A model generated the notes under the pieces. That model was given only the letters and a program-made list of their open reading frames with translations, was not told where the DNA came from and searched no databases. Below, piece after piece: positions 11,612 to 53,635 of a DNA stretch of 64,000 nucleotides (its first letter is position 1; the number at the start of each line of letters is the position of its first letter). This DNA is from Oxynema aestuarii AP17 (GTDB taxonomy: Bacteria > Cyanobacteriota > Cyanobacteriia > Cyanobacteriales > Laspinemataceae): contig NZ_CP051167.1 in the NCBI RefSeq assembly GCF_012295525.1, forward strand, positions 5,621,299-5,685,298, in the 5' to 3' direction. The translations under genes and the position numbers were made by a program.

Positions 11612-14600
11612 TATTTTTATTGCCACTACCAATCCCTACAAATTCTGCCGACTGACCAGCTGCGGTTACAGTCATTGGTCTTTCGCTTCCTGCAGCAAGA
11701 AAACCATGAGCTGATAAGTCAAAAGTTACGAGGTAATCTTCGCCAGGAATAGTGTTAATCGTTTGTTTAATTCCCCCCGGACCTGGTGTACCATCAAGGT
11801 CAATACTATAATCACCATCAGAGGCTTGCCATAAACCTGTACCACAATGATCGACCGACCTCAGCATCACGTCCCAGCCTTCAAGTGTAGTCGAATTATA
11901 TCTTACTATTGTCCATGAATTTTTCGGGGCTGGTCCTCTTTCAAAACTCCCATTCTGAATTAAGTTTTCACCGATCGCCGGACTTAATAAAGGAAAGGTT
12001 TGTTCTAAACTAGAGGGAACTATTTCTCGAATCGTATAGGTATCCGCTGTCAAATTGGTAAATTGATAGGAGCCGGTTTCGTCTGTTAAAGGAGTGGCGG
12101 GATTATCTGTACTTGTTTTTGTGCTTGGTTCCTCAACATCTAACCTTCCATTATTATTCAAATCTAAATAAATTTCTACTCCAGCTAGTCCACTTTCTTC
12201 TGGGTCGAAAACACTGTTTTTATTAGAATCTAACCATTTAATTCCGCGAATTTCCCCTAAATCCGTCTGGTGGGCAACACTCAATTGAAAAATCTGAGTA
12301 TCAATTCCACCCTGAGTATCTTGCACCTCAACCGCAATCTCATATTCTCCCACATTGTCATCGGTTAAGTCGTTCCAACGAATTTCTCCAGTAATTGGGT
12401 CAACCGTCATTCCATCGGGAGGATTCACCAAGGAATAAGTCAGTTGGTCGTTTTCAGGGTCGAGCGCTCGGACTGAATAAAGATAATCGCTCCCCACATT
12501 GACTCGTTGTGAGGGTTCGCTAATAATAATTGGTGCGTAGTTCCCAGGCTTTTCTTGGATTAAAATATTGAAGGATTGCGTTACTTTTCCACCCCTGCCA
12601 TCTTCGGCATTCAGCGTTACTTTCTGTAAGCCTAGTTGTTGGGTATTGGGTTGCCAAGTTAAGGTTTGAGTTTCGGAATCAAAACTCATTCCTTCGGGCG
12701 CATTCATAACAGAAAAAGTCAGTTTATCCCTATCTGGGTCAGTAGCACTAATTTGATAGCGATACGGTTGATTGATATAAGCATCCACCACCGGCGTGGA
12801 CGTGAATATAGGGGGTCGATTCGGCGGAATTTCCGTCACTGACAGGGTAAAGCTTTGAACGTCTTTCCCCCCACGAGAATCCACTACCTCTACAACAACA
12901 GCATGAGTTCCAATCTCCTCAACCGTCGTCTCCCAAGTTATCACCCCAGTTTCTGAGTCAATTATCATCCCATTGGGAGCTGATAATAACGAATAACTCA
13001 ACCCATCATTATTCGCATCTTTGGCAATAACTTCATACCGATAAGAATTCCCTCCAATCGCTTCTAGTGGCGGTTTGCTTTCGATAACCGGGTCAGCATT
13101 TAACTGTCCAAGTACCGCCAATTCATAAGTAAATTGAACTCGATTGGGGTTGAAGAAGGTTAGCGAACCCAACTCAGTTATTTCAGTCGGGTCTAACTTT
13201 CCATCCTCGGCCAATTCAGAGAAATTATAATACGGCACTCCTTCTGGGGTAAATCCATCTGGGTTGCGCAGTAAAACTGTGGGGTCACTGATATTAGAAA
13301 CCGCCACCAATAAAGGCCCATCTACGCTATAATTGCCTTCATTGCGAATGGCAACTTCCGCATACAGTTCGTTGCTACTTTCATCAAAGCGGGTGCTTCT
13401 GTATTCTAAGGGGTTTGAAGGCGTAATATCAGTCAGCTTGCCAAACTCGGCTAACTCAATCGGCTGACTGCGATGATTGTCTTCACCGCTACTGACTGGC
13501 GGTTGTTGCTGAGTGCTTCCCACCAAGTTCAGGTTGCGGATGCTGACTGAGGTAGTCGTGTCGCGATCGCCATTCACCAATCGCAATACTAAATTAGCAC
13601 TTCCCGGACTCACCCCATTCAAATTGAGCGTCACCGTACCCGTACTTTCATTATATTCAACGCCAGCGGCTAATTTCGGTTCTTCCCCTTCGGTTAAATT
13701 AAAGAAAGCATCTCCCGAACCAATGGTATGCACCAAAGAATTCCCTTCTGCATCCAAAAGAGCGACTTCAAACGCATCGTTAATTGCATTACTATCGCTC
13801 CTGTCGAAATTGAGTGCAGCCAATGTAAAGACTAACTGAGAAGAAGTCTGTGGAATAGTCAATTCTTCTCGATGACTGACTGAAAAGTTTTCCCCTTCTA
13901 CCAAAACGATATCATCAACATTGCTAACTTCTGTGCGAGTAATGATGCGACTGGTAACGGTGGAATTGCCTGCGTCGTCAAGGGTTTGAATGGTAAAGGA
14001 ATTTTCCCCAACAGTAAGGTCAATTCCTGCAAAAGAGAATTGTCCCGTTGTATCCGCCGTGACGGTTGTGCCGGTTTCGATTAAAGTGACGGTAGCATTG
14101 GGTTCTGTCGTCCCTGTCAGGGTTACAGGTGATGCAGCGGTTTGAGCGTCGCCAGGGATATCGGTGTCGGATGCGGGGTCTAAGTCAAATGTCAGCGGAG
14201 GCGCGGTGGTATCTAGGGTAAAGTCATACTGGTACTCGGTAATGTTTCCCCATTCGTCAATGGCCTGCAAGTATAATGTGTGAGAGCCATCGGGGAGTGA
14301 ATCGCCGTAAATGGTGGCAAGTTGGGAAGGGGTGAGGGTAAAGTCGCCGGTTTCTAAAAGTTGCGAGTCAATGTTGATGAAGGAAGAGTTGTCAAAACTG
14401 GCAGTAAAACTAACAATGTGGAGAGGGTTGGTGAGAGTGCCAGTAATAGTCGGGTTGTAGGTTTTGCGATCGCTATCGGATATGCCAGTATCTTCTGCAA
14501 GTTTTGCGGTGATGATGGGAGACTGGTTGTTCTGTTCTGCGTAAGAAACGATTTGCTGTCCAATTTCAGAATTGCGCCAATCTGAATCGGGAGCAATCAC

Positions 14601-15146
14601 TTCATCCAGGTTAGTCACGATTCCGGTTGCAGCTGACATTTTGAAGGTGATATCGTTAAAGTCGGCATCCCCTCCAGGCAACCGTAAATCTTCCCAGGCA
14701 AATAAGTTCCCATCTCCAGTGACATCAACGAGTTGAGGTTGATGCAACGCTCGTTCCGGGTCACTGGGAGTTAACGAAAGGAAGGGTTTTTTGCTGCCAG
14801 TAACTTGCGGATTGTCAAAGAGTTCTTGGAGGGTGCCGTCAGGAATTAAAATTAAGCCAAATTCTGTTCCTTCCGGTAAAGAGAAAGTTTTCTCTCCTGA
14901 TTTGATGCCACGATTCCAATTGTAAGCTTCCAATTTTCCATCGAGTTTAGCCGCTTCTGTGGAGTCGGATATCAGAACATAACCTTCGTCGGAATTGGAG
15001 AGAGAACGTCTAGCGATTTCTTGGAAGAATTCAGCAGACCCCCATTCATATTCCGAGAGTCCAGCCATATTGAACAAACCGACAGTGCCTTGATAATAGC
15101 CGCCATCGAAGATGTATTCGATGTTAATAGAGCCAGTTTCTCCCAC
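11568..15146 (-). CDS. Giant cell-surface protein, upstream half (annotated from GTG at 15146). It contains a DUF4114 domain, He_PIG/cadherin-like Ig repeats, an SdrD-B-like domain, and the N-terminal two-thirds of a DUF642 domain that is truncated by IS copy 2. The last 8 codons come from the IS end. The same frame stays open upstream to about 16304 with no canonical start codon, across an acidic S/T/E/D repeat region.
   Basis: The DUF4114 motif is …DGGYYQGTVGLF…DLRLPGGDADFNDITF. SdrD-B is …GIKWLDSNKNSVFDPEESGLAGVEIYLD. DUF642 is LIQNGSFERGP…DYSIDLDG…YLVTFDLSAHG. By manual translation I found no stop in frame from 15147 to about 16304. Confidence 0.7.
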   Translation of the reverse strand: MGETGSINIEYIFDGGYYQGTVGLFNMAGLSEYEWGSAEFFQEIARRSLSNSDEGYVLISDSTEAAKLDGKLEAYNWNRGIKSGEKTFSLPEGTEFGLILIPDGTLQELFDNPQVTGSKKPFLSLTPSDPERALHQPQLVDVTGDGNLFAWEDLRLPGGDADFNDITFKMSAATGIVTNLDEVIAPDSDWRNSEIGQQIVSYAEQNNQSPIITAKLAEDTGISDSDRKTYNPTITGTLTNPLHIVSFTASFDNSSFINIDSQLLETGDFTLTPSQLATIYGDSLPDGSHTLYLQAIDEWGNITEYQYDFTLDTTAPPLTFDLDPASDTDIPGDAQTAASPVTLTGTTEPNATVTLIETGTTVTADTTGQFSFAGIDLTVGENSFTIQTLDDAGNSTVTSRIITRTEVSNVDDIVLVEGENFSVSHREELTIPQTSSQLVFTLAALNFDRSDSNAINDAFEVALLDAEGNSLVHTIGSGDAFFNLTEGEEPKLAAGVEYNESTGTVTLNLNGVSPGSANLVLRLVNGDRDTTTSVSIRNLNLVGSTQQQPPVSSGEDNHRSQPIELAEFGKLTDITPSNPLEYRSTRFDESSNELYAEVAIRNEGNYSVDGPLLVAVSNISDPTVLLRNPDGFTPEGVPYYNFSELAEDGKLDPTEITELGSLTFFNPNRVQFTYELAVLGQLNADPVIESKPPLEAIGGNSYRYEVIAKDANNDGLSYSLLSAPNGMIIDSETGVITWETTVEEIGTHAVVVEVVDSRGGKDVQSFTLSVTEIPPNRPPIFTSTPVVDAYINQPYRYQISATDPDRDKLTFSVMNAPEGMSFDSETQTLTWQPNTQQLGLQKVTLNAEDGRGGKVTQSFNILIQEKPGNYAPIIISEPSQRVNVGSDYLYSVRALDPENDQLTYSLVNPPDGMTVDPITGEIRWNDLTDDNVGEYEIAVEVQDTQGGIDTQIFQLSVAHQTDLGEIRGIKWLDSNKNSVFDPEESGLAGVEIYLDLNNNGRLDVEEPSTKTSTDNPATPLTDETGSYQFTNLTADTYTIREIVPSSLEQTFPLLSPAIGENLIQNGSFERGPAPKNSWTIVRYNSTTLEGWDVMLRSVDHCGTGLWQASDGDYSIDLDGTPGPGGIKQTINTIPGEDYLVTFDLSAHGFLAAGSERPMTVTAAGQSAEFVGIGSGNKNIAILSHLWQKSIRI

Positions 15147-16249
15147 TTGGAAAACCCCTTGGGAGAAGTTGGGGAAGGTTGGTTCGATTTCAGTAGGTAC
15201 GGTTTGAGCAACAACGTTGATGGTGAGGGAGTTGCTGTCGGATGGGGAGTCGTTATCTTCTAGAACAACTGATGCAGTTTCTCCGGAATCTGATGTAGAT
15301 TCGGTTGGATTGGATGTAGCGGGTGGAGCGGAGGGTTTAATTGCGGACGATTCGGTTTGAGATGAGTTGGGTCCTGAAGTGGGATCGATAATGAATTCGG
15401 TTGAAGCTGATGAAGTTGTCGAGGCTACTAAGTCTTCTTCAGCTAAATCGAGAGGTTCATCCTCATCTGAGTTGAAATCTGTGTCATCTGTGGTTAAAGA
15501 TGAGGAATTTGTTTCGGTTGAATCGAGTGAAGATTCTTCTGAATCTGGGGTCTCTTCTGCACTAGCAGGGGTGGTTGCTGAGTCGGACGAGGCAGGAGAT
15601 TCAGCCAGTATATCCTCATCCGATTGAAGAGCATTGGATGTTTCTTCTTCGCTGCTTTCATCCGCAAATTCTGTCGAATCAACTGTATCGGAGTTGGACT
15701 GGATTGAGGAGGAAGTTTCTAAGTTGGATTCTGTCGCTTCAACTGTGTCGGAGTCTGATACCGTTGAAGTTTCATCAGGAGATTCGGTCGGTTCGGATGT
15801 TTCAGTTGAAATCGAACTGGATTCTGTTAAATTGGATGTATCGGAGTCGCTAAGGATTGACGGTGAGGTTTCGGTTGAAACTGACGTGGATTCTACTCCG
15901 TTGTTGGGGTCGTCCGGTAAGAGAATGGACGATTCAGTTTCTTCAGGAATTGAAGTGAATTCAGTCGGCTCAACTGTTGTCTCATCAGATAGGAGAGTTT
16001 CTGATTCAGTTTCTTCGGGAATTGAGGTAGATTCTACCCCGTTGTCAGTGCTATCAATGTCAAGGTTTGACTCTACGGTTGAATCGTCCGCCGCTATTTC
16101 ATCACCATTCGGTTCTAACCCGTCAATTGTTTCTGAAACTTCGTCTGAAGCGCTTTCTGGGGTCGATTGAAGTAAAGCGGATTGTTCTTGGACGTAGGTG
16201 ATTATTTCTTGTCCGCTGGGAGTCGTGCGCCAGTCTAAATTAGGATTAA

Positions 16250-17119
16250 TTAATTCATCAAGGACTGTGGCGGTTCCGGTAGCTCCAAATAGGAAAAGAT
16301 GAGGTCATTGTAGTCGAGATCGCTTCCCACATCAACTCGCAAGTCTTCCATGACAAACAAATTGCCCTCTCCGGTGACATCAGCAATTTGTCCCACATGA
16401 AAGGCATCTTCTGGGTTGGCGGTGGCGAGGGAAAATAAAGGTCGTTTGTTCCCAGTCAATTCCGGATTTTCTTGAACTTCTTCGATTGTCCCATTGGGAA
16501 CAAGGATGATGCCAAATTTATCTCCAGGCTGCATCAAGAAGGTTTTGTTTCCTTCGTGTTTTCCCCAATTAAAATTGGTGGCTTCTTCTAAATCTCCGGT
16601 AAATTTGGCGGCTTCATTGGCGTCAGAGATGACGATATAACCTTGTTCGGAATGACTTAGCGCTCTTTTGGCAGCTTCTTTAATAAATTCTGCACTTCCC
16701 GGGACAAATTCTTCCATCCCGGTTAAACTGAAGATACCAATTTCACTTTGGTAAGCACCACCATCGTAGAGGAATTCGATGTTGACTTGTCCAGTATTGC
16801 CTACGACAAATATTCCAGATGTGAAGTCGGTATTTTGGACGGATGGAAGTGCTTCGCCGGTGAGGGGATCTATTGGAGAGTTGTTATCTGAACTGGGGAG
16901 TATGCTCGACTCAATATTATTAACTGATACTCCGTCGGTCAGCGAGGTGTCCTCAACTCCATATTGAGAGTTTATTGGGAATAACTCGCTACCAGTTGGC
17001 GGAGATTCTAATGGCTTTATTGGGTTGTTAAATGGGTCTACGGGATTGTCAACTAACCCGGATATTAAGGGGTCTCCCTGCGAGTCAGGAAATAACGATT
17101 CATTGTTTAAAATTTGCAT
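16250..17119 (-). CDS. DUF4114-domain protein (289 aa). It is a paralogue of the DUF4114 domain at the start of ORF 11568..15146. It is probably the true 5' end of the giant gene, separated from the long downstream frame by a -1 frame change within 16253-16304.
   Basis: …GQVNIEFLYDGGAYQSEIGIF…GNLFVMEDLRVDVGSDLDYNDLIF matches the downstream DUF4114 domain. The stop at 16250 overlaps the open downstream frame. Confidence 0.6.
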   Translation of the reverse strand: MQILNNESLFPDSQGDPLISGLVDNPVDPFNNPIKPLESPPTGSELFPINSQYGVEDTSLTDGVSVNNIESSILPSSDNNSPIDPLTGEALPSVQNTDFTSGIFVVGNTGQVNIEFLYDGGAYQSEIGIFSLTGMEEFVPGSAEFIKEAAKRALSHSEQGYIVISDANEAAKFTGDLEEATNFNWGKHEGNKTFLMQPGDKFGIILVPNGTIEEVQENPELTGNKRPLFSLATANPEDAFHVGQIADVTGEGNLFVMEDLRVDVGSDLDYNDLIFSYLELPEPPQSLMN

Positions 17120-17320
17120 GACGAGTTTCCATCCGTGCTTGTAGTTTAGATGGTGCTGCGTCCTGGCTTTTTTTGTAAAAAGTAGGATGCTCTAAGCGAA
17201 TTTTAAAAAACTTGAAAACTAATTTAACAACTCTATGCAATTTCCCTATCCGCACTTTTACTGAAGTTTTTAAGTTTTTTTGGGGAAGTTTTTGCCTAGG
17301 CTGTGTAAACTTTTCAGTAT

Positions 17321-17350
17321 TTTTACTTAGTTTTACTTAATTTTACTTAG
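17321..17350. repeat. Three tandem copies of a 10-bp unit (TTTTACTTAG/TTTTACTTAA/TTTTACTTAG) in the AT-rich region upstream of the giant gene.
   Basis: Read directly from the sequence. Confidence 0.7.
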
Positions 17351-18088
17351 GTTTAGCAATTAATTTGATACAATCTTTCTTTATAGAATGGGCTTTTGAA
17401 TGAATTTTAATCCTTGTAAATTAATGCAAAAAAAGTGACGAAAAACTGTTTTTGCCTGGGAAAAACATTGTTTTTGAGTAAGAATACTGATTTGGTTATA
17501 CAGAATACAGGAGTAGTGAGGGAAGGGGGATTTAATCGGGACGGTGGAGTTGGAGGGGTTGATGAGGGAGCCACAACCAAAGCGAAAAAGTTGGTGAGGG
17601 TAGCGCCAGGGGCGTCGCTCCCGTTCAGGAACGATTCCAGTTGCGAGCGCGAGGTTCGCTTCGGATCGCCATACCCGATCCCACATCAGTGTGCTTGTTA
17701 GTAGGCAGTTTCAGTTTTTCTTTGCCCGCGATGCTCCCCATCCCTGATTGCCAGCAACTATACCGGCAGGAACTGAAAACAGCAGCTTGTGTTAGGCGAT
17801 CGCAATCAGCTTGGACGACAAGAGCGCGATTAGAGGTCAAGCCAGTTTCCCAAATCCTTCCTTCCCCAGATAAGGCAAGCATGGATGGGTTGAACACAAG
17901 TCGGGCCAAAAATAATCGGAGACTTTTGGATAAACTGCCACAACGCATTCGGACAAGACAGAGCGATCGCCATCGCATAAAAATGGAGCAACCCTTGCGC
18001 TGTAAGGCTGCGAGGCTCCCGACGAGTTTGGGTGGGTTCAGCGATTTTGGTTGAGCCTCGCAACAGGGGTGGCAACCGTGGAAAGGAA

Positions 18089-18412
18089 TCACCAAAAATC
18101 TAGCTGGATCTGTGTCGGCGGGTCGAACTCGCCGGTTACCCGAGAGCAGATAGCCGGACCATACAGCTTTAACAGCCGGAGCAAATCCTCCAACTCTTCT
18201 CGGGTCATTGCGAATTTAGTAGGTTTCCCATAGCGGCGCTTGATGAATCCTCGCAACTCAGCCTTATCCAGCCCTTCAGCCGCCAGTTTGAGAAACAAAG
18301 CGTGGGCCAATTTCAGCAGTTCGTGGGAAGTCAGTTCGGTTGATGTTAGCTGGTCGGTGGGAGTCGCCACCTTGACCTTGCCAGCCAGAATCCGCACCAG
18401 CGATCGCAACAT
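18089..18412 (-). CDS. Hypothetical small protein (107 aa), probably mobile-element-associated. Iteron-like direct repeats lie in its upstream region.
   Basis: Supported only by the ORF and its context. It has no recognisable domain. Confidence 0.35.
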   Translation of the reverse strand: MLRSLVRILAGKVKVATPTDQLTSTELTSHELLKLAHALFLKLAAEGLDKAELRGFIKRRYGKPTKFAMTREELEDLLRLLKLYGPAICSRVTGEFDPPTQIQLDFW

Positions 18413-18448
18413 GGGAGTGGGGAGATGATTGCGATTGAAGTCAGCTGC

Positions 18449-18613
18449 TAAATTAAATGTCGTCTTGCCAAATTAATATCGCTGAACTTGATAGACAGCA
18501 ATCCCTCTGTGCATAAAGGTTCAGGCTATTTTTACACGAGGACCCACCCCAAACTAGGCTTGACAAATTAAATGTCGTCTTTTGTAATTTTGACCAATTA
18601 GATGTCGTTTCTT
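18449..18613. promoter_or_regulatory. Iteron-like direct repeats: AAATTAAATGTCGTCTT twice (18449, 18565) and CCAATTAGATGTCGTTTCTT once (18594).
   Basis: The units were found by eye. They lie upstream of the minus-strand ORF 18089..18412 and next to IS copy 3. Confidence 0.45.
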
Positions 18614-18733
18614 GTAAAAGGTATTGGCAAGCGATTGTAAGTAGGCTTCTTCTGCGCCATCGGCAACTGTTTAATCATTAATCAGATAACTGCCGAAACC
18701 GTGGGAGAAGCACCGACAAACTGATTGATGCTA

Positions 18734-19855
18734 TAGCAGTCCTAAATGATTCATGGAAGCTTTTTTTGTTATAATATACACGGAAGATTCTCAATATCAG
18801 ACAGACCTCATGAATATCATAGACGAGCTAGATAATTTCATTGAAAATACCACAAATACCAAAGAAATGAAGAGAGCATTGGCAGCCAAAATGAAATTAT
18901 CTGGTCAACCCTCTAAGAAAATTGAAGAAATATTAAATGTTTCTTCGAGCTTCGTTAGTCAATGGAAAAATAAAGCAATTTTTGAGGGTGTTGAGAGTTT
19001 GAATCTTCAATACAAAGGAAGTAAAGGCTATCTAAAACCGGAAGAAAAAACACAAATCACTTCATGGATAAGACAACAAGAGTATTTGAGATTGTCTGAC
19101 TTAAAACGATATTTGCAGCAAGAATACAACGTGATTTATTCTTCAAATCAAAGTTATTATGACTTGCTGAAAGCGGCTGGCATGAGCTGGAAAAAGTCGC
19201 AAAAAAAGAATCCAGCCAAAGATGAAAAGCTAGTCAAAAAAAAAGAAGAAGAAATTCAAAAGAAGCTTAAGGACTGGGAAGAGGATATCAAAGCTGGAAA
19301 GCTTGCTGTGTTTATGATTGATGAATGTCATCTTCTTTGGGGAGACGTCTTGGGTTTTGTTTGGGGAAGAAAAGATATAAGAGTCGAAATTCCCATTAAA
19401 AACCAAAAAAGTCGCCAAAGTTATTATGGCGCTTTAGATTACCAAACTCATGAATTTATTCTTCAAGAATACCCGAAAGCCGATACCGACAATACCATTC
19501 AGTTTATACAATACTTACGAGAACAAAGACCGGGACAAAAATTAGCCATTTTTTGGGATGGTGCCAGGTATCACGACTCTCAACAATTTCGAGATTTTTT
19601 AAAAGAGCTAAATGAAGGCTTAGAAGAAGATGAATGGTTGATTACTTGTACGAAGTTTGCTCCGAATGCTCCCGAGCAAAATCCAGTTGAAGATATTTGG
19701 CTGCAAACTAAAAATTTCTTGAGAACATTTTATTTTTTATGTGATTCATTTAAAAGAGTTAAAGAGCTATTCAAGATATTTGCTGATGGCCAAGTTTTTG
19801 ATTTCCCTAAGCTATATTCTTATGGATTTTTGCCACAAATGACTTAGGATTGCTA
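18734..19855 (+). mobile_element. IS630-family insertion sequence, copy 3, identical to copies 1 and 2, with TA duplications at 18732-18733 and 19856-19857. It is inserted in non-coding DNA.
   Basis: The sequence is identical to the other copies. Confidence 0.85.
18753..19847 (+). CDS. IS630-family transposase (copy 3).
   Basis: The 364-aa ORF is identical to the other two transposases. Confidence 0.8.
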   Translation: MEAFFVIIYTEDSQYQTDLMNIIDELDNFIENTTNTKEMKRALAAKMKLSGQPSKKIEEILNVSSSFVSQWKNKAIFEGVESLNLQYKGSKGYLKPEEKTQITSWIRQQEYLRLSDLKRYLQQEYNVIYSSNQSYYDLLKAAGMSWKKSQKKNPAKDEKLVKKKEEEIQKKLKDWEEDIKAGKLAVFMIDECHLLWGDVLGFVWGRKDIRVEIPIKNQKSRQSYYGALDYQTHEFILQEYPKADTDNTIQFIQYLREQRPGQKLAIFWDGARYHDSQQFRDFLKELNEGLEEDEWLITCTKFAPNAPEQNPVEDIWLQTKNFLRTFYFLCDSFKRVKELFKIFADGQVFDFPKLYSYGFLPQMT

Positions 19856-19912
19856 TATAGCGACATTAATCTGTCAACGGCGACAAATAATGTGGCAACC
19901 GATACGATCGCT

Positions 19913-19998
19913 AACCTGCCTTTCGTTGGCAGTTTAGGGATTGAGGCAGGCGATCGCCAACCTGCCTTTCGTTGGCAGTTTAGGGATTGAGGCAGGCG
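19913..19998. repeat. 2 × 46-bp perfect tandem duplication (AACCTGCCTTTCGTTGGCAGTTTAGGGATTGAGGCAGGCG), each unit bounded by HIP1-like GATCGC.
   Basis: Read directly. The two units are adjacent with no spacer, so this is not a CRISPR array. Confidence 0.7.
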
Positions 19999-20962
19999 CT
20001 CTCCGGTCTGGGCGAGTTGTAGATTTGGGCGGCGAACTGTTTTTTTCTCGGTAAAAGCGAATGCGCTCCCGGGCTTCGTCAAAATTTCGATCTCGTCACC
20101 TCCCCCCCATAATTGTTGCCGAGCACAGCGCACTGCACCAGGGTCAGCCGACAATAGCCCGAGCGCACCCCACACTGGCATTGACCCCGCCTATAAAGCG
20201 GGGTCGGTGGGTTAACAGTCAGCAGTAGAGTGGCGATCAGCAATCAAATCTAAGACTTTAGGTTGCCAGTGAACGCAAGCGCCACTCCATTGGTCGCGTG
20301 GTGGTGTTTAAGACTTGAGCGCATTCACGACCGGAGTTCAGTGAGTTGCCAGATGGTTTTTTTCAGTGCGAGCGCTTCGATTGGAGTCCGAGCGGGGCTT
20401 CGAGGTGGGCTGGCATTGCTCGCGTCCCACCACGCAAGCATCCTGGGCAATCCACTCGCTTTTGCGATCGCCTTCTAAAAATGCTGAAAAACGTCAACAT
20501 TCGTCAACTAACATTGCCCCGTTACGGCAGTGGCGGGGGTAGCGGTTGCCTGGGAAAATAACCGAAAAAAATCAACTTTTATCAACCCAGCCCCTTCATG
20601 TGAAAACCTGGAGTACGAGTTTTACACTCTTGCCCATAACCTGTTTACGAGTCGAATCATGGCAAAACCGCTCATGCGGACGCGGTTCAAGAGCGCCCTA
20701 CGAAACAAAGCAGATGCGGATGCCGGTGCCGCTTTTTCGCAGGTGATGGAACTGTGAGATCGCTACCGTGAGTTTATCGAAGCTGGGGGTTTTCCCGCTT
20801 CCTCGCGCCACCGATGCTGGAGTCTCGTTTGCTTGCAGGGTGACCCTCTTGCGATCGCAATGGCTACCCTCAAGCCTAGTTTAATTTTCATGTTCTTGAT
20901 TTCAAAGAGCGAGTAGGAAGAGAGGAATTACCCGAAGTTTAGCGGGTTGATAGGTTTTAGTT

Positions 20963-23900
20963 TCATGCGGTAGAAACCGCCACAGCCTCCGTACAGGCGA
21001 TCTCAACGCTATGAGCCGGAACAGTAACCGTTCCCATATCCGGCACTCGGATAATTACGTGCCATTCATTACGCCTGTAAGGATTTTGGAAGGGTTCCCC
21101 GTCAGCACGGCCTACCCACTGCCCCCAGTCGGGCCTAGGGTTGGTGGCGTCAGGGGCGATCGTAAACCATTTCCCCTTCCAGGTTTCGGCATCGGAGGCG
21201 ACTTCAGTCATGGGTTCGGGGTCTGCCATTGTTTCGGATTCTGGGGTGGGTTGGGTATCTATAGCGCTGTTTGCTGTATTAAATTCTGTACCATTTTCTA
21301 CTGGATTATATAGTTCACCCACAAAAATGGTACAGTCATTGGCGGCTTGTAATCCTTTGTCCGCATACGTTCTAGCTACTGCCCTAGCTACTGCTTTCCA
21401 GTTGGCCGTCTCCGAGAGTGAATAGTCGATTTGGTAGAGATTTTTCTTTTTGTTTTTGCCCCGCTGTTGTTGGGCACATCGGAGGCGAATCCCGAATAAT
21501 CCAAGGATCCAATTGAAGGATCGGATCGGATTCTGCGCGGGCATCCTTCCGCCTAGTCGGGCCCGAATCTGCGGATCCTTTCTCCATCGGTCAGCGATCG
21601 CCTGCACTTCCGGGTCATCTTTAGATTTAGGTGTTTTGAATACCTCTAAAATGCCCAATTCAGCCAAAGCCCTCACCTCCCCCAGATATGAGCGGAATTG
21701 ATAGGCTCTAAACCCTTCGCGCTTAATCCAAGATTCGGAGGTGGTAGATTTGGCGGTTTCCTGCTGCTGGAACAAAAACCACCGTTTTGCCTGCGATCGG
21801 GTATCCCTATTTTCCAAGTACCAGCGGATAAACTCGGGGGACCATTGCGGGTCTAGGTCAATTTCTGGGAGCGACATCCGGATCGAATGTCGGATCACCT
21901 TGGGGCGGTCCTCACGGTTGCAGCCTTTCTTCAATCTTGTAAATTCATCATCGTCAATGTTGTCGGCTTCATGAGCGCCGATCGCCTCCCTGTCTTTGAT
22001 TTCGTCTTTGGCATTTTTGAATTGAGCCAGCGCCTCGGGATCGGCTTCAACTGCTGCCTCAATTACCTCGCTTCCGTTGACTTCTAAGAGCCAGCGCAAG
22101 CATTCTCGCAGATTGGCTTTTTCATAGTTAGCCTTAGCCCGCTCCCAGTAGGCTTGGCGGCAATCGGGGGAATTGAGTTGGGTCTGCCAATTGTCGAACG
22201 TGCCGTGCCCCTCCCCGAAGGAATCCCAGAGGTTTTGAGCCAGACCAAACCGGATTGTGCGTTCGATCGCCCTGGGGGTGTACTGCCCTCCCTCTCCTAA
22301 TCCTTTAGGATTTACCCAAACATGACGCTCGCAACAGTCACGAATCCGCCAGACCATTTGGCTCAGGAGGTCAGCAGAAAGCACCCCATGAAAAATGCAG
22401 AACTGGGCATCAAACCAATCAGGCACCGAGATATCCACCCCACTCATGGCTGATGGGGAATAAATGAATCGGGTGATTTTGTTGGACAATATCGCCTCAT
22501 TTGGGTCTTTTAGGATCGACTTCATCCAATCCTCGGGTACTGTCGTCGAATCGACCCGATAGCCCTCCAAAATGCCCATAGCCGTGAGAGTTTCGTCAAG
22601 AGCCTCACAAGTTTTCTGGGAGTCACTCGCAATCGCGAATCGTTTCCCCTGTGTCGCCAGTTCGATAATCTGCTTAAGGATTGAGCTAAAGTTTCCAGCC
22701 TTTACGTCACCCTCGACAAGACTTCCTAGATGAAAATGGATCGGCGTCTTGGGGGTGACTGGTTTGGCGATTTTGGTTAGCTCAAGATGGGGTGCAACTG
22801 TCTGTAGGTATTCGCAGTGGCGATCGCCCAAGTATCCATCAAGTGCAACGATTGCCTTGCTGTGCTGTAGGGCATCATGCCAATTGGATTCGATAAATCT
22901 TTGCTCTGCCAATGGCCGGGACGTGAGGGTGCTTCCATCCACGAATTCTCGAATGATGGCTGTGGCTTCATCCAGTACGATGATGGCATCCTCCAAGTGC
23001 TGAGGCTTGAAGCGGTGCAGAGACTGGATACAAAAAAGGTGATGCCCTAAAGGGTCGGGTGCAAAGAAGAATTCATCATCCTCACTGCGGAAGTGCAGCC
23101 CCTTTACTTTCTCAGCAGTTTGGATCAGAAGAGTGTTTGACACCCCCAGGTAAAGGATTTTATGCTTACCCTTAAATGCTGATGCCAGCTTCACAAGCGC
23201 GGTGGTTTTGCCCGCGCCCATCCCGGCCCGGACTGCGGTAATCTTCCCTAGAATCTCATCAGGATCTAGATCCACCCAATCCCCTTGGATTAGGCGATCA
23301 GGCGTGAACTGGTAGCATTTTTCCCATTGCTGTCGCTGCTGTTGAGCCTTCCATGCTTGCTTCTCTTCATCCGTGAATTCGTGTCGCTTGGGGTTGGCTT
23401 CTTGAAGGGGGCCAAAAAATTCGGCTGCGGGCTTGAGCTTGATCGCCGTGCCTTCCGGCAACTCATCGCAGTCGGGCTGGGATTTATCGTTCCACTGACC
23501 CCAGTCAGCGAACTGAAGCTCAATCCCTTCCTTATCTAAGAGGGCTTTTAAATTTCGGTAAGATGCTTTGACGTGGGCATTAACCCGGCTCCCCCCATCC
23601 GGCCAAAAGATGGCCTTTTTAATCCCAAAATCTTTGATGGCCTTCTGGGTGATGAGTGCGGGGAAATTCCCCCCGGCTGCACCGAGCCATAAGCCTGAGC
23701 GCAACGATTGGGCTATATCCGGCTTGAGGATGCCTTCGGAAAAGTTGCCTATGCCGTCGATTGCCGTACCCAATGCGGTGATAGGCATCTCGCCGTTTGG
23801 CAGCTTCGAGTCGAGAGGCGACTTGCTCCAAATGTACTTACCGCCTGCGATTTGACCAAAGCCAGAGGGGTCTTTTCTCCACTGGAAGCCGATAATTTTG

Positions 23901-25864
23901 TCACCCCAGAAGGCAGGGCAAATCATGCCGCCGCGCTCTGAACTCCCAAATGACCCAAGCTCGATCGCCTCTGCGGACAATCCCCGTGCTTTTAAATTTT
24001 GATAATGTCTATCCGACAGTGGGCGAGATTTTAGGTATTGGCGGTATTGCCGATCACGTTCTGCAAAAGCCTCCTCTAGGCGATCAGTTGCCTCAATCTT
24101 GCGGGCTTGTTCCTGTTTCTGAGCCTGTACCCTGATGCGTTGCTGGCGTTCCCATTCCTGGCGCTTCTCTTCTGTCCAGCGATCGTACTTGCGAATCATC
24201 ACGGGTAACCCGTAACGACCGCCGAGGGGGCGCAGGTGGAATTGGGGGATGAGTCCGGCGTGCAATAGGGAACTTTTGCCGACGCCGGAGGGTCCGTAAA
24301 CGATCGCGAGTTTATGTGAGGTTTGGCTGAGGCGATCTTTGATTAAAAAATCGACATCGTCCTGGCGCCCGGAAAGGGCGAAGGTGGGGGCGAGGTCGCC
24401 GCTTGGGTCGCGTTGTCTCAGTTGCGGTTGCACTTGTCCGGCGCCGATGAATGCCAGCAAGCCGTATTGATAACCGAGGCGTTGTTGAATTTGCTTGATG
24501 GCAAAGGCTTTGCGGTACTCTTGCTGCTGGTAGTACAGTTGGTGCAAGGTGGCTAAGATGCGGTTGATGTAGAGCTCGGGGTCGAAGTCGGGTCGTCGTT
24601 CGGTGGCGGTTGTCGCCTCGGTGTCGATGCCGACGATTTCCCGGGCTTGTTCTAAAGCGGCGATCGCCCCTTCCCACTCTTTTAATTCTTGCAAGTTTAA
24701 CGCAATTAACAATAAATAGTAAGCCTGCGGCATCCCTGGGGACGGCTCAATTTTGGCCACGGTGGCGAGGGCCGATTGCGCCCACTTTCCCCCTTGTGTC
24801 CACTGCTGCCGATGGTAGGCTACTTCTGCTAAAAAGCCGTAATATCGGGCTTCCCGAAGCGGGTCGGGATGTTGGCGATGTTCGCTTAACTTCTGGTGGG
24901 CGAAGGCTTCTAACTCGTCCCACCCCTGCATCTGCTGCAAAACCGCCCCGAGTTCGACGGCATACTTGAGTTTCAAATCTTCCCGTCCGGCAATTTGGAG
25001 GGTGTCGAGACAGGCTTGCATCGCCTGTTTGGCTTCGTTCCACTGCGCTTGGCGCTGGTGACAGGCGGCAATATAAAAATGGGCGATCGCCTGTCTTTCT
25101 AGAGCTTGGGTACGAGTGAGGGCGATCGCTTCCCCCTGCCAAAAACTCAAACTTTTGTGATAGTCTTGCAAGGCTTGTTCGAGTTCTCCCCCCAGATAAG
25201 CGCGCCATCCTGCCATAAAATTGAGACAGGCGTTTAACTCGGGAGACCATTGCACCCGGCGCCGTTCTAATTCCTGGACAGCAAAGTTGATTTCTTGTTG
25301 TTCGACGGGACTAAAAATTTCCTCGGGGGACATCAATTCCCCGCCTTCAATGATGATTTTAAACCCTTTTTCTCCTCGATTTTTTAAAAATTGCAGCAGG
25401 CGATCGTCGCTCATCGAAAAATTGAGACTAATTCCCCAACTTTTAAAATCTTTAATGACCCGAGTAAACTGTTTAGAAATTTCGTCATTGACCCAAATAA
25501 TGACAGGGAATGCAAAGTTTTGCCGAAACTGTTCTCGCGCGTGATTGGTAGCACTTAAAATTGCTTCAATTTCTGTCAGTTCTTCCAATCCATAAACCAT
25601 GACTGCTTTGGCAGGGGTTTCGGCGATCGCCCTCGCGATCGGATTGTACAGATCGGCGATCGGGTTTTCTAGAGGAATTTCGAGAATAGGAAAAGGAGAT
25701 TTTTCTTGCAAGCGGCGGATCGATTGCTGTCGAAAGTCCCTGAAGTTGCAGCGCGCAAAAATTAGAGCAAATTCTCCCTCAGATAACTCTAGAGTATTAA
25801 TAATTTGATCTAGAATTTGTTCGCTATTGGGGTCGAGTGTCCCTGCATTGTGCGTGGTGTCCAT
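20963..25864 (-). CDS. Large multidomain protein, about 1630 aa. From the N-terminus it has an unknown domain of about 190 aa, TPR-like helical repeats, an orphan P-loop (AIVYGPSGVGKSSLLHAGLIP) with no obvious Walker B, a coiled coil, a DUF3854 (Toprim/primase-like) domain, and a P-loop NTPase (GMGAGKTT…IVLDEA, SF3/D5-type helicase-like). After that comes a long C-terminal region of the kind seen in cyanobacterial plasmid replication proteins. The likely start is ATG at 25864; the GTG at 25882 used by the ORF track lies inside a repeat element.
   Basis: Motifs were read from the translation. The protein sits in a plasmid- or ICE-like context with an IS, iteron-like repeats and a dispersed repeat. 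Confidence 0.65.
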   Translation of the reverse strand: MDTTHNAGTLDPNSEQILDQIINTLELSEGEFALIFARCNFRDFRQQSIRRLQEKSPFPILEIPLENPIADLYNPIARAIAETPAKAVMVYGLEELTEIEAILSATNHAREQFRQNFAFPVIIWVNDEISKQFTRVIKDFKSWGISLNFSMSDDRLLQFLKNRGEKGFKIIIEGGELMSPEEIFSPVEQQEINFAVQELERRRVQWSPELNACLNFMAGWRAYLGGELEQALQDYHKSLSFWQGEAIALTRTQALERQAIAHFYIAACHQRQAQWNEAKQAMQACLDTLQIAGREDLKLKYAVELGAVLQQMQGWDELEAFAHQKLSEHRQHPDPLREARYYGFLAEVAYHRQQWTQGGKWAQSALATVAKIEPSPGMPQAYYLLLIALNLQELKEWEGAIAALEQAREIVGIDTEATTATERRPDFDPELYINRILATLHQLYYQQQEYRKAFAIKQIQQRLGYQYGLLAFIGAGQVQPQLRQRDPSGDLAPTFALSGRQDDVDFLIKDRLSQTSHKLAIVYGPSGVGKSSLLHAGLIPQFHLRPLGGRYGLPVMIRKYDRWTEEKRQEWERQQRIRVQAQKQEQARKIEATDRLEEAFAERDRQYRQYLKSRPLSDRHYQNLKARGLSAEAIELGSFGSSERGGMICPAFWGDKIIGFQWRKDPSGFGQIAGGKYIWSKSPLDSKLPNGEMPITALGTAIDGIGNFSEGILKPDIAQSLRSGLWLGAAGGNFPALITQKAIKDFGIKKAIFWPDGGSRVNAHVKASYRNLKALLDKEGIELQFADWGQWNDKSQPDCDELPEGTAIKLKPAAEFFGPLQEANPKRHEFTDEEKQAWKAQQQRQQWEKCYQFTPDRLIQGDWVDLDPDEILGKITAVRAGMGAGKTTALVKLASAFKGKHKILYLGVSNTLLIQTAEKVKGLHFRSEDDEFFFAPDPLGHHLFCIQSLHRFKPQHLEDAIIVLDEATAIIREFVDGSTLTSRPLAEQRFIESNWHDALQHSKAIVALDGYLGDRHCEYLQTVAPHLELTKIAKPVTPKTPIHFHLGSLVEGDVKAGNFSSILKQIIELATQGKRFAIASDSQKTCEALDETLTAMGILEGYRVDSTTVPEDWMKSILKDPNEAILSNKITRFIYSPSAMSGVDISVPDWFDAQFCIFHGVLSADLLSQMVWRIRDCCERHVWVNPKGLGEGGQYTPRAIERTIRFGLAQNLWDSFGEGHGTFDNWQTQLNSPDCRQAYWERAKANYEKANLRECLRWLLEVNGSEVIEAAVEADPEALAQFKNAKDEIKDREAIGAHEADNIDDDEFTRLKKGCNREDRPKVIRHSIRMSLPEIDLDPQWSPEFIRWYLENRDTRSQAKRWFLFQQQETAKSTTSESWIKREGFRAYQFRSYLGEVRALAELGILEVFKTPKSKDDPEVQAIADRWRKDPQIRARLGGRMPAQNPIRSFNWILGLFGIRLRCAQQQRGKNKKKNLYQIDYSLSETANWKAVARAVARTYADKGLQAANDCTIFVGELYNPVENGTEFNTANSAIDTQPTPESETMADPEPMTEVASDAETWKGKWFTIAPDATNPRPDWGQWVGRADGEPFQNPYRRNEWHVIIRVPDMGTVTVPAHSVEIACTEAVAVSTA

Positions 25865-25874
25865 GGTTTTTTTA

Positions 25875-26104
25875 TACAGCACTCGGGCATCTTAGTGAGG
25901 TACAGTGCCGATCCCCTTCTATCCCCCCAACCCCCCTTTGAAAGGGGGGCGAAGGAGGGTTAGGGGGGAACGAGGAAAGTAGGGGTTTGGTAATCCAACC
26001 CCTACCTGGCGAGGGGGATTTAGGCGGATCTAGAGGAAAGTCCCCCTTTTTAAGGGGGATTTAGGGGGATCTAAATGTTTTGCATAGCAGAGGAAAATGC
26101 TATA
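25875..26104. repeat. Copy A of a dispersed MITE-like repeat. Its terminus is TACAGCACTCGGG…, its interior has G/C palindromes, and its conserved 3' module is GTCCCCCTTTTTAAGGGGGATTTAGGGGGATCTAAATGTTTTGCATAGCAGAGGAAAATGCT.
   Basis: Three copies occur in the window (also at 42881 and 53435). The ends form short inverted repeats (CTACAGCA…TGCTGTAG). Confidence 0.65.
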
Positions 26105-26181
26105 TGGAAGTTTGGGGTGACTTTAATCCCCTCAGTTCCCCTTGAGAAGGGGGGCTTTTGAAAAGGGAATTTTGGGAAATT

Positions 26182-27522
26182 TCATGTGAGTTCGGGGGCG
26201 TCTTCTAAGAGGGGATTGAGATCGAACCAGCGACCGAATTCGTTGGTGCGATATTCAAAAACGAATAAACTCCTTAAAAGGATTTGATATTGATCTTCTC
26301 CGGTCACTTTTTTAGTTTGCGAGACTTTTTTAAGTAACTCCCATTCCAGTTCGGTAATTGCCAGCATCAGGTCATCTCGTTCTTGACGAATGGCAATTTC
26401 GAGGCGATCGCGGGTAATCGGTAATTGCTTGCTTTGTTGCAAACAGCGAAATAACAAACTGAGTAAATTTCGCACGTGACCGCCACTGATACCACAGAGG
26501 CGATCGAGGGTTTCGGGACGGTCAACAACCTCGGTGATGCGATCGCGCCGTTGTTTTGGCGACAGTTTGGGAAAAGCGCGGGCTAAAATCGCCTGTCTTA
26601 ATAATTCTAACCCTTTTTCACAGTTTTGACCGTCGGCTAACTTCACCGGAACCATCGGTAAGACCATCGGCGCATTACCTCCCCCTAAACGCTTTTTTAA
26701 TGCTTCCCGTTCGTTAGAAAACATCAACACGAGGGGGATGGTATAAACCACATGACATTTTAATTCCTTTAACTGTTCTCCTCGGGTAATAAATAAATAT
26801 TCGACCGCACTTTTATCATCCGATCTTTTACGATTGTCTACGCGATCGAGACTGTCGATAATAATGACCAGTCCTTCTTTTCCTTGCTTCTTTAATTGAA
26901 GGTTAGCAGGTTGGATTAAATCGCCGTTAATCGCCTGTAGTAAGGTATTTGTTTTCGGTTCTAAATAGTCGCGCAGGCGATCGCGCATTTGTGGACTATC
27001 TTTAGTTTTGGCAACAATCTTACCCAGGTTAACTTTAGCACCAAGAAAAGAAATTTCTGGATTAAACTCCATTTCTGCTTTCAGTTCGATGGGAGTGAGC
27101 AGAAACTGCACGCATTGTTCTAAAAGCTCATTAAAATAACCGGGTTTGAGGTTGAGGCTTTGCTGTTCTAAAGTATCGAGAACTTTTTGGGCGATCGCCA
27201 ATAAAACATCGGTGACGTCCACATCTCCCATTTCCAAATCGTCGCGGGTGTCGATATAAACGACAACAAAACCCTGTTTTTCTAGCTCGAATTTTAAGCG
27301 CAATAACTCGGTCGATTTACCACAACCAATATGTCCGGTGAAAAGCTGACAAGTCGGATCTGGAGAAAGGAGGGAGATCGTTTCTCCGAGTTGTTCGACA
27401 ATATCCGTACCTCTGACGGAAGTAAAATCAATGTAATAATCTTTATCCTCAGGTCTCTCAATCCAGATGGTTTTGCTGGGATTGCAGGCGCGAAAAAAGC
27501 GTTTAAACTCATTTCTATCCAT
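26182..27522 (-). CDS. ORC/Cdc6-like or AAA_16-type P-loop ATPase with Walker A TGHIGCGKSTELL and Walker B LVIIIDSLDR. The C-terminal half looks like a lid/winged-helix region.
   Basis: Motifs were read from the translation. The start is ATG at 27522 (MDRNEF…); the longer ORF-track start is less likely. Confidence 0.55.
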   Translation of the reverse strand: MDRNEFKRFFRACNPSKTIWIERPEDKDYYIDFTSVRGTDIVEQLGETISLLSPDPTCQLFTGHIGCGKSTELLRLKFELEKQGFVVVYIDTRDDLEMGDVDVTDVLLAIAQKVLDTLEQQSLNLKPGYFNELLEQCVQFLLTPIELKAEMEFNPEISFLGAKVNLGKIVAKTKDSPQMRDRLRDYLEPKTNTLLQAINGDLIQPANLQLKKQGKEGLVIIIDSLDRVDNRKRSDDKSAVEYLFITRGEQLKELKCHVVYTIPLVLMFSNEREALKKRLGGGNAPMVLPMVPVKLADGQNCEKGLELLRQAILARAFPKLSPKQRRDRITEVVDRPETLDRLCGISGGHVRNLLSLLFRCLQQSKQLPITRDRLEIAIRQERDDLMLAITELEWELLKKVSQTKKVTGEDQYQILLRSLFVFEYRTNEFGRWFDLNPLLEDAPELT

Positions 27523-27693
27523 GATGTGATTTCCATCATTGGGGATGGGCGATCGGATGGCGTCGGGATAGCACCTTTTCGAGGTTTGGCTCGATCGTAT
27601 TCTACTTTTGAGGAATTGTCCCGGGAAATGTAACATTTATTTGCCTCCGGGGGCGCAACCAGAACACCCCCGGTACAAACATCGGTACAAACA

Positions 27694-42880: not shown

Positions 42881-43015
42881 TACAGCACTCGGGCGTCTGA
42901 TGAGGGGGATTGCGGGGGGAACGAGCAAAGTCCCCCTTTTTAAGGGGGATTTAGGGGGATTTAGGAGGATTTAGGGGGATCTAAATGTCTTGCATAGCAG
43001 AGGAAAATGCTGTAG
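42881..43015. repeat. Copy B of the dispersed MITE-like repeat (135 bp). It begins TACAGCACTCGGG and ends …AAAATGCTGTAG.
   Basis: It shares the 5' and 3' modules with copies A and C. Confidence 0.65.
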
Positions 43016-43167
43016 CGTCTTTTCAAGAGTTTGTAAATGAATCCCCCCTCCTCGATCGCTTGAATCTAAGATAAATCTTGTAATCGACCTTAACAATTCA
43101 CAAACTCCCTGTAGAGATACGGCATTGTCGTATCCTAATTTTATCGCATTTTTGATTTAAATCAATC

Positions 43168-53434: not shown

Positions 53435-53635
53435 TACAGCACTCGGGTGTCTGATGAGCTACAGTGCCGATCCCCCTATCCCCCCTTCGCCCCCTATCCC
53501 CCCTTCGCCCCCCTTTCAAAGGGGGGTTGGGGGGATGGTTGGGGGGATTTCGGGGGCAACGAGCAAAGTCCCCCTTATCTAAGGGGGATTTAGGGGGATC
53601 TAAATGTTTTGCATAGCAGAGGAAAATGCTGTAAG
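53435..53635. repeat. Copy C of the dispersed MITE-like repeat (201 bp).
   Basis: It shares the termini and the 80-bp 3' module with copies A and B. Confidence 0.65.

Follow-up and report, generated by a model that had tools for sequence, protein, structure and literature searches.

Genes at the locus

The window analysed here, a 64,000-nt stretch of the Oxynema aestuarii AP17 genome (contig NZ_CP051167.1, positions 5,621,299 to 5,685,298), contains at 20963-25864 on its minus strand a single open reading frame (ORF) of 1633 amino acids (aa) counted from an ATG, with an alternative GTG start, also open, six codons further 5' that would give 1639 aa. Exact-sequence look-up identified the product as QIZ73035.1 / WP_168571181.1 of O. 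aestuarii AP17, which is annotated as a "plasmid replication protein, CyRepA1 family". The gene is carried on a 6.36-Mb AP17 contig and also on a 6.31-Mb contig from the Joint Genome Institute (JGI), and from the size of these contigs its setting is therefore the chromosome. An initial annotation, made from the letters of the window, had reported an ORF of about 1.6 k aa at 20963-25864, and such an ORF is real, being one open frame on the minus strand; all the motifs quoted at that time (GGMICPAFWGDKIIGFQWRKDPSGFGQIAGGKYIW, WPDGG, GMGAGKTT, IVLDEA and AIVYGPSGVGKSSLLHAGLIPQ) were found in the translation. Structurally, the ORF is chimeric, joining the 5' part of an nSTAND1-family gene to an unrelated CyRepA1 plasmid replication gene (rep), and is referred to below as the hybrid ORF. 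Its parts, and the element to which its rep part belongs, are as follows (window coordinates).

20963-25864, minus strand: hybrid ORF, the probable left (attL-like) junction gene of an integrated plasmid (ORF list, translation, exact-sequence look-ups)
24179-25864, minus strand: chromosomal 5' part, codons 1-562 of an nSTAND1-family gene
24168-24179, minus strand: putative crossover core CTGGACAGAAGA, codons W563-T-E-E (three-way nucleotide alignment)
23255-24178, minus strand: CyRepA part 1, residues 563-870, a helical hairpin and a predicted DnaG-type Toprim primase (RNA-polymerase) domain
21479-23248, minus strand: CyRepA part 2, residues 873-1462, a UL9/SF2-type helicase and the CyRepA1 signature region (NCBIfam, Pfam)
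20963-21478, minus strand: variable C-terminal tail of CyRepA, residues 1463-1633, with no Pfam match and kept in the unfused orthologue
1-24178, no strand assigned: left part of the integrated plasmid, with rep, small ORFs, giant DUF4114/He_PIG surface-protein genes and IS630 copies

Two disjoint classes of relatives

A tblastn search with the whole protein against 72,556 plasmids returned 142 records, 0 of which cover both halves: residues 1-564 match the N-terminal third of WD40 or "P-loop" proteins from Acaryochloris, Nostoc and Calothrix at 30-34% identity, and the matches to CyRepA1 replication proteins run from residues 581-603 on. Likewise, 1916 hits came from an exhaustive phmmer search in which residues 250-1449 were compared with 1.84 billion cluster representatives, and among the best 150 of these one class stops at about residue 564-594 and the other begins at about 556-579. 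No second protein spanning both halves was found among the 142 plasmid records or the best 150 of the 1916 phmmer hits; in these, residues 1-564 have nSTAND1/WD40 N-termini as their only relatives, and residues from about 556/582 to 1500 have CyRepA proteins only. A scan of genome contigs, a collection without this species, gave only one distant Leptolyngbyaceae locus. The initial annotation had named, as an outcome that would overturn it, a common domain combination for residues 1-620 that is routinely joined to the primase; the combination proved to be common indeed, but its partner is nSTAND1-WD40 and never otherwise CyRepA.

Residues 1-563 are the opening 563 residues of a typical protein from a large cyanobacterial family composed of an N-domain, TPRs, nSTAND1 and, usually, WD40 repeats. 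Pfam nSTAND1 (PF20703) matches residues 499-603 with 39.8 bits against a gathering cut-off of 27.1, spanning only profile positions 18-131 of 379, and the TPR-like repeats noticed earlier in the N-terminal part correspond to a TPR_12 signal at residues 339-410. Thirty-two relatives align end to end with residues 1-563 at 32-40% identity, the P-loop GxSGVGKSS and W563 being invariant across them, and 33 members of the subfamily contain nSTAND1 in every case (33/33), WD40 in 25/33 and TPR_12 in 24/33. The placing of TPRs before a P-loop, which had been taken as unusual, is the normal layout of this subfamily, in which WD40 sensor repeats come after the NTPase. The remark that a lone Walker A stands with no Walker B behind it was borne out, as the nSTAND1 match stops at profile position 131; the Walker B (family consensus LIFDQFEEFF) is missing from the hybrid ORF and is located elsewhere in the JGI contig (in a stretch termed L014, at 4838-6961), and no WD40 repeat was found by Pfam in the hybrid ORF or anywhere in the 64-kb window. 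This family was recovered through tblastn on plasmids and the exhaustive phmmer search; a word-indexed homologue search returned 0 matches with the N-domain alone and only 2 proteins with residues 1-620. PADLOC gave sub-threshold matches only. Residues 1-190 had no Pfam match and a profile of the N-domain had no significant match among PDB sequences, while fold comparison pointed to a degenerate AAA+-like domain, a predicted fold for the N-domain, earlier unassigned, of a large nSTAND1 subfamily. The N-terminal half is thereby divided as follows.

Residues 1 to about 215: putative degenerate AAA+-like N-domain (fold comparison)
Residues about 216-470: TPR region
Residues 499-563: start of the nSTAND1 NTPase, with Walker A

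Compared with nSTAND1 NLR-like proteins, which belong to conflict systems and have WD40 sensors, the hybrid shares the N-terminal 560-600 residues, aligned over their whole length, as well as the P-loop, W563 and an upstream ATPase partner, whereas its NTPase ends after profile position about 100-131 of 379, and the Walker B, the winged-helix/arm region and the WD40 repeats sit 44 kb off in a reciprocal hybrid.

The other half is a CyRepA1 replication protein that has lost its head. Residues 873-1462 match NCBIfam NF042913 (CyRepA1) with 276.4 bits against a cut-off of 200, over profile positions 2-593 of 595, and the early description of the C-terminal ~1000 aa as a plasmid replication primase-helicase is upheld for about 1070 residues. 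An SF3-like helicase had been proposed; the best family is instead Herpes_ori_bp (UL9-type), matched by Pfam at residues 875-1020 (22.2 bits, cut-off 20), no SF3 helicase family is listed among the Pfam matches, and a PDB sequence search found UL9-type origin-binding proteins only, weakly, UL9 being an SF2 helicase. The helicase motifs are a Walker A of GMGAGKTT and a Walker B of VLDEA, and the helicase domain of CyRepA has been termed DEXDc (PMC10079941). Upstream of it, the Toprim part has the conserved residues E710 (SEGILKP), D756 (WPDGG) and DCDE800-801, and the region aligns with residues 98-374 of Crinalium CyRepA1. A structure model of residues 563-870 (pLDDT 88) was superposed on the DnaG RNA-polymerase (Toprim) domain with a value of 15.2, on Twinkle with 12.6 and on the T7 gp4 primase fragment with 11.5. 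Pfam DUF3854 was matched neither by residues 601-870 (E up to 1) nor by residues 563-870 together with four relatives (E up to 0.1). Of the DUF3854/Toprim primase that had been suggested, a Toprim fold of DnaG type is thus retained as a model-based prediction, and the DUF3854 label falls away for this clade. Sequence identity to DnaG, T7 gp4 and Twinkle is only 10-17%, and the hybrid differs from them in that its attached helicase is UL9/SF2-like and not a DnaB-type ring helicase, and in that the zinc ribbon of its primase would have been removed by integration. A coiled coil at residues about 565-612, previously counted with the N-terminal part, is the native N-terminal helical hairpin of CyRepA and is also present in the unfused orthologue.

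Unfused versions of this rep exist. Two members of the 90%-identity cluster of the hybrid protein, P0163 and P0164, are called as 1090 aa; they start MGALFQPQSDRERDRQNW-TEEKRQEWERQQRIRV and then continue as hybrid residues 563-1633. The true ORF of P0163 is 1152 aa (3595-7053 of contig L008), with an ATG 62 codons further upstream, and its N-terminal sequence, NPCPVCGGSSGC...GVAC, resembles a zinc ribbon; P0006, a relative at greater distance, has a zinc ribbon too. A scan of metagenome contigs with ParM returned 0 matches, in a collection that lacks these samples. From W563 on, P0163 and the hybrid share 94% protein identity (94% also in the Toprim segment), and P0163 is found on nine metagenome/SRA contigs with a ParM-like gene, small ORFs and a helix-turn-helix (HTH) gene upstream and, downstream, small ORFs and a giant gene matching the window. 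The first ~80 residues of the 1152-aa rep, with their CxxC...C...C zinc ribbon, are replaced in the hybrid and found 44 kb off in the reciprocal hybrid. Compared with the CyRepA1 family (Slr7037 of pSYSA; NF042913), the hybrid is alike in its above-cut-off match at residues 873-1462 and in that its nearest relatives adjoin ParM on plasmid-like contigs, but it is chromosomal, lacks the native upstream region and has 563 foreign residues in place of the zinc ribbon; DUF3854 has been described N-terminally for Slr7037 and ORF B, whereas no Pfam DUF3854 match is present here. The initial annotation had asked in what neighbourhoods the homologues lie: CyRepA relatives stand beside ParM on plasmid-like contigs, and nSTAND1 homologues stand behind a partner ATPase.

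Evolutionarily, the whole rep part of the hybrid differs from the unfused orthologue by a synonymous divergence (dS) of 0.17 with a nonsynonymous-to-synonymous ratio (dN/dS) of 0.14 and no stops, and on these values a decaying rep part was rejected. The domains vary as follows.

Toprim domain: dS 0.30, dN/dS 0.10
Helicase: dS 0.09, dN/dS 0.08
C-terminal tail: dS 0.31, dN/dS 0.26

Synonymous divergence is thus a mosaic along rep (window 20963-24178 against L008 3832-7053), high in the Toprim domain and the tail and low in the helicase, and two further relatives, P0003 and P0004, share 76-81% identity with the window over the Toprim part but only 47-51% overall. Together, these patterns suggest module exchange within CyRepA genes.

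Both junctions of the element

The point at which the two genes meet can be placed to the base. In blastn of the unfused contig L008 against the window, homology of 94-95% begins at 24179 and extends to 12727, broken only by an IS630 copy at 18738-19855, and when the two are compared codon by codon, no relation is seen through codon 562, after which they are identical, starting with the base that precedes TGG (W563). In a three-way alignment, the 12-nt core CTGGACAGAAGA is identical in the hybrid ORF, in the reciprocal hybrid and in the intact plasmid rep, and it lies in the same frame in both parents, as rep codons 78-81 and nSTAND1 codons 563-566 (W-T-E-E). As a side observation, GATCGC, most of a HIP1 site, stands 0-6 nt 5' of the core in both parents (window 24179-24185, L008 3817-3823).

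Entry of a circle into the chromosome by crossing over would leave its ParM end at the far side of the element, beside the remainder of the nSTAND1 gene. A ParM of the corresponding 90%-identity cluster, QIZ73010.1, is encoded in the O. aestuarii chromosome 25 accession numbers from QIZ73035.1, and its neighbourhood on the JGI contig (L014) consists of ParM, small ORFs, an HTH gene and a 707-aa ORF, the right junction falling at about position 4,702,496 of that contig. The latter reads ...NPCPVCGGNSGC...DRQTW-TEE-LGAALAE...LTVLIFDQFEEFF... and then WD40 repeats, or, across the switch point, ...NPCPVCGGNSGCAPSKAIPNGVAC...DRERDRQTW-TEE-LGAALAE, and is the reciprocal hybrid: CyRepA residues 1-77, with the zinc ribbon, followed by nSTAND1 from the residue after W563, where the left hybrid has nSTAND1 residues 1-563 followed by CyRepA from residue about 81 to the end. 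When hybrid residues 1-562 were rejoined with the L014 remainder, the restored nSTAND1 gave one Pfam match over profile positions 18-342 with 114.9 bits, against 39.8 and 68 bits for the separate halves, of which the L014 half alone spans positions 102-342. Both hybrids are on the same strand, and in the JGI record the distance from one copy of the core to the other is 44,217 bp. With reciprocal hybrids on one strand, core copies at that distance and a single nSTAND1 match restored, the topology is the one that a Campbell-type single crossover gives when a circle enters the chromosome. That the fusion arose by simple deletion between neighbouring genes was rejected, since both the reciprocal hybrid and the element's ParM end still exist 44 kb off.

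The reciprocal 707-aa ORF ends out of frame inside a WD40 repeat (L014 4838-4968), and a 781-aa ORF carries the repeat on in another frame with a 131-nt overlap, which may reflect a frameshift in the WD40 array (decay or an assembly error); a similar overlap of 64 nt occurs between two annotated genes on Acaryochloris pMB06.

The integrated plasmid and its relatives

That the setting is an integrated element, as had been suspected, was confirmed: window 1-24178 is the left part of a ~44-kb plasmid in the chromosome. In the JGI assembly the element measures 44,217 bp, its ParM/HTH end lying beyond the window start, and window 12727-24179 is collinear at 94-95% with contigs that have ParM-HTH-rep upstream. 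A free plasmid relative, pOSCIL6304.02 of Oscillatoria acuminata PCC 6304 (NC_019694.1), is a circle of 50.7 kb, where the Oxynema element is integrated; identity to it is 91.6% over 6 kb on the ParM side and 91.9% over 1.4 kb on the DUF4114 side. The two share gene order on both sides of the rep slot, namely a 481-aa and a 365-aa gene, ParM, small ORFs and HTH before it, and a small ORF, a DUF4114 gene, IS630 and a giant DUF4114 gene after it. The slot itself differs, holding a DUF5906-domain protein in pOSCIL6304.02 (L016, NC_019694.1 16095-19175) and CyRepA in the Oxynema element, which by sequence would be a rep-cassette swap on a conserved backbone. Members of the ParM cluster and of the cluster of the related CyRepA P0004 are also encoded five accession numbers apart on one 44.4-kb Laspinema contig. 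Compositionally, the HIP1 octamer GCGATCGC occurs at 12 sites in 1-24000 and at 99 in 24001-64000, a density five-fold lower on the element side; this change coincides with the junction, and HIP1 density is a simple marker of the element boundary.

Within the element, collinearity of the window with the JGI assembly (L001 22015) and with the metagenome relative (L008 14161) stops at 12727, inside a giant He_PIG/DUF4114 surface-protein gene that is 5687 aa long in the JGI assembly and split into ORFs of 1192, 1775 and 947 aa in the window. A strain-specific rearrangement or deletion at 12727 is likely, probably linked to IS copies or internal repeats.

Mechanism and alternatives

We propose that a ~44-kb circular plasmid carrying ParM partition genes, an HTH gene, a CyRepA1-type rep, small ORFs and giant DUF4114/He_PIG genes would have entered the O. 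aestuarii chromosome through a single reciprocal crossover within the 12 identical bases CTGGACAGAAGA, a chance identity in the same frame of rep and of a chromosomal nSTAND1-WD40 gene. The outcome would be two in-frame hybrid genes flanking the element, with the rep part translated, if at all, from the signals of the ATPase/nSTAND1 operon, and a further exchange between the 12-bp cores might in principle release the plasmid and make both genes whole again. The hybrid is thus very probably a junction by-product of microhomology-mediated plasmid integration. Campbell-type integration is known from Hfr formation and from "integrative suppression" by F or R plasmids; the likeness lies in a single reciprocal crossover that would bring the entire circle into the chromosome and in the recovery of both junctions, reciprocal, on the same strand and with a direct repeat of the crossover sequence. 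Intact non-integrated relatives were found for the element, for rep and for nSTAND1. Unlike in those cases, the crossover here would have used 12 bp of chance identity between unrelated coding sequences and not an insertion sequence (IS) or long homology, both hybrids are in frame and the plasmid's own rep gene is cut.

From a functional perspective, the cut through the STAND NTPase separates Walker A from Walker B, and the primase-helicase no longer has its promoter region, its zinc ribbon or the HTH and ParM genes beside it. Template-directed priming by DnaG-type primases requires a zinc-binding domain, and T7 gp4 in its short form, which lacks that domain, is primase-deficient. CyRepA1-driven replication of pSYSA is controlled from a region immediately 5' of the gene, and the corresponding upstream region of rep is gone in the hybrid. 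Both parent functions thus seem to be broken, with neither surviving in the hybrid ORF, and the hybrid is therefore better described as a junction by-product than as a machine with a new function.

A selected fusion, in which the nSTAND1 N-module (degenerate AAA+, TPRs and P-loop) would regulate or target the primase-helicase as a new sensor-coupled replication or defence protein, is very unlikely. Its 1633 codons are open and identical in two assemblies, the rep part has a dN/dS of 0.14, and the in-frame join follows the ATPase gene, a plausible partner in an operon; however, the join falls inside the NTPase domain and removes the zinc ribbon of the primase, no second example turned up in the searches above, and a recent integration, with most of the divergence older than it, would be expected to give a low dN/dS. 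Moreover, the reciprocal hybrid and the whole plasmid are still present, and the hybrid is therefore the direct product of one crossover. The novel sensor-coupled, defence-like primase of the initial annotation, which is this same idea, is not supported, given that an unfused rep orthologue and a reciprocal hybrid both exist. Somewhat broader, and unlikely, is the joint possibility that the hybrid is expressed with a new regulated replication or anti-plasmid activity, or that knock-out of the NLR-like gene let the plasmid persist. Were the former true, the AAA+/TPR module would oligomerize with or titrate the partner ATPase with an active primase-helicase attached; were the latter true, insertional knock-out of an NLR-like gene would amount to anti-defence by integration. 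Site-specific integration by an element-encoded recombinase, with the 12-bp core as attP/attB and a defined target in nSTAND1 genes, would account for the identical core on both sides of the element, and recombinase-type genes are at hand: a resolvase and a Tn3-family transposase are encoded in the element 7-10 kb from ParM, and pOSCIL6304.02 has a recombinase family protein. We nonetheless hold it to be very unlikely, in that the core sits inside the element's own rep coding sequence and integration destroys rep, both families have the WTEE codons as part of their normal conserved coding sequence, no other insertion at the core was seen among the nSTAND1/CyRepA relatives examined, and no integrase gene was seen next to the two junctions in the flanks examined, the inspection having covered all but ~13 kb of the element. 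Finally, free relatives of the plasmid exist and an assembler might have joined one to the chromosome, but such an artefact is extremely unlikely: 12 identical bp are far too few for an assembler to be misled, one 6.3-Mb contig contains both reciprocal junctions in frame, and the left junction is common to the AP17 and JGI assemblies, between which there are 8 mismatches in 16 kb, a rearrangement and an IS630 insertion. The assembly chimera that the initial annotation had allowed for is on these grounds improbable.

Several points nevertheless weigh against the integration by-product. The hybrid ORF is unbroken over 4.9 kb, and its low dN/dS (0.14) fits a very recent integration and equally fits continued selection on the rep part; the breakage of both parent functions is drawn from domain anatomy. 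In addition, the inspection took in ~31 kb of the 44-kb element, both junctions are known from assemblies only, and an integrase acting on the 12-bp core can be envisaged, at the same low probability as above.

Neighbouring genes and repeats

Around the hybrid ORF, three further features were defined.

26182-27636, minus strand: chromosomal 484-aa P-loop ATPase, partner of the nSTAND1 gene (60% identity to the pMB06 partner gene)
18738-19855, plus strand: IS630-family insertion, with its transposase ORF at 18753-19847 (NCBIfam transpos_IS630, blastn breakpoints)
19856-20962, no strand assigned: plasmid-derived non-coding region 3' of rep, collinear with the unfused relative (L008, L001 alignment)

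The 484-aa ATPase lies outside the integrated element, whose end is 24178, and is 60% identical to the gene directly 5' of the nSTAND1-WD40 homologue on Acaryochloris pMB06; on A. marina pREB2 and a Nostoc UHCC 0302 plasmid, a P-loop/ATP-binding gene of similar size likewise stands directly 5' of the nSTAND1 homologue, as taken from annotation and not from alignment with the window ATPase. It had been called ORC/Cdc6-like; an ATPase gene does adjoin the hybrid gene on the same strand, but it has no ORC/Cdc6 or DnaA-type family match, with only weak, sub-threshold matches to ATPase_2, AAA_16, Hda and mad8, and it is the nSTAND1 partner instead. It thus belongs to the nSTAND1 cassette and is not a replication factor. 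More generally, a P-loop/ATP-binding gene of about 436-484 aa directly 5' of an N-domain/TPR/nSTAND1/WD40 gene forms a recurrent two-gene cassette, seen on Acaryochloris and Nostoc plasmids (L004 4691-9870, L005 4649-11448, L006 4590-11484) and, through the ATPase at 26182-27636, in the Oxynema chromosome; the cassette ATPase reaches no curated family above its cut-off.

The flanking IS copy that had been reported corresponds to the IS630 at about 18738-19855. It is absent from the JGI assembly and from relatives, with an empty site in L001, and therefore arrived after integration. Three copies of one 364-aa IS630-family transposase ORF lie within the element (1257-2351, 10509-11603 and 18753-19847), of which at least the third is missing from the JGI assembly of the same organism, and the IS is therefore currently active. 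The non-coding kilobase beside it, formerly described as GC-rich and structured, is neither: its GC content of 0.527 is no higher than that of its neighbours, and a structured RNA was ruled out by the lack of an Rfam match and a fold z-score of -0.97 against shuffles. A 46-bp tandem duplication, reported earlier, was located by TRF at 19905-19998; it is common to the JGI assembly and not the same in the metagenome relative.

As for the iteron-like repeats that had been listed, what is present is two exact 17-mers, AAATTAAATGTCGTCTT, at 18450-18466 and 18565-18581, 115 bp apart, together with a degenerate third copy; they are intergenic in the element, are kept in the metagenome relatives and could be a candidate operator, partition site or iteron-like site. 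The dispersed repeat that had also been listed was found at 26012-26072, 42943-42982 and 53582-53601. With AGATCCCCCTAAATCCCCCT-type units, it extends over about 80-120 nt at 26012-26105, 42914-43037 and 53552-53633, and also at L014 918-1022; it is intergenic, including the region just 5' of the hybrid gene, and its core has 6 matches against 0.01 expected.

Implications

CyRepA proteins, nSTAND1 proteins and Campbell integration are already known; what is new is a base-resolved CyRepA plasmid in a chromosome, with both junctions, a 12-bp core and two in-frame hybrids, one of them inside an NLR-like gene. An apparent new "sensor-primase" architecture becomes, on the interpretation that we favour, the left junction of an integrated plasmid, and a false lead is removed. 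More broadly, a chance match of 12 bp in coding sequences that are otherwise unrelated can be enough for integration, and integration can create long in-frame hybrid ORFs that pipelines name after one parent, which cautions against taking long multi-domain ORFs as evolved architectures. For the family itself, CyRepA homologues have been reported on the chromosomes of 80/145 cyanobacteria, with their function unexplained (bioRxiv 10.1101/2023.10.09.561360), and plasmid integration of the kind described here would offer one concrete origin for such chromosomal homologues.

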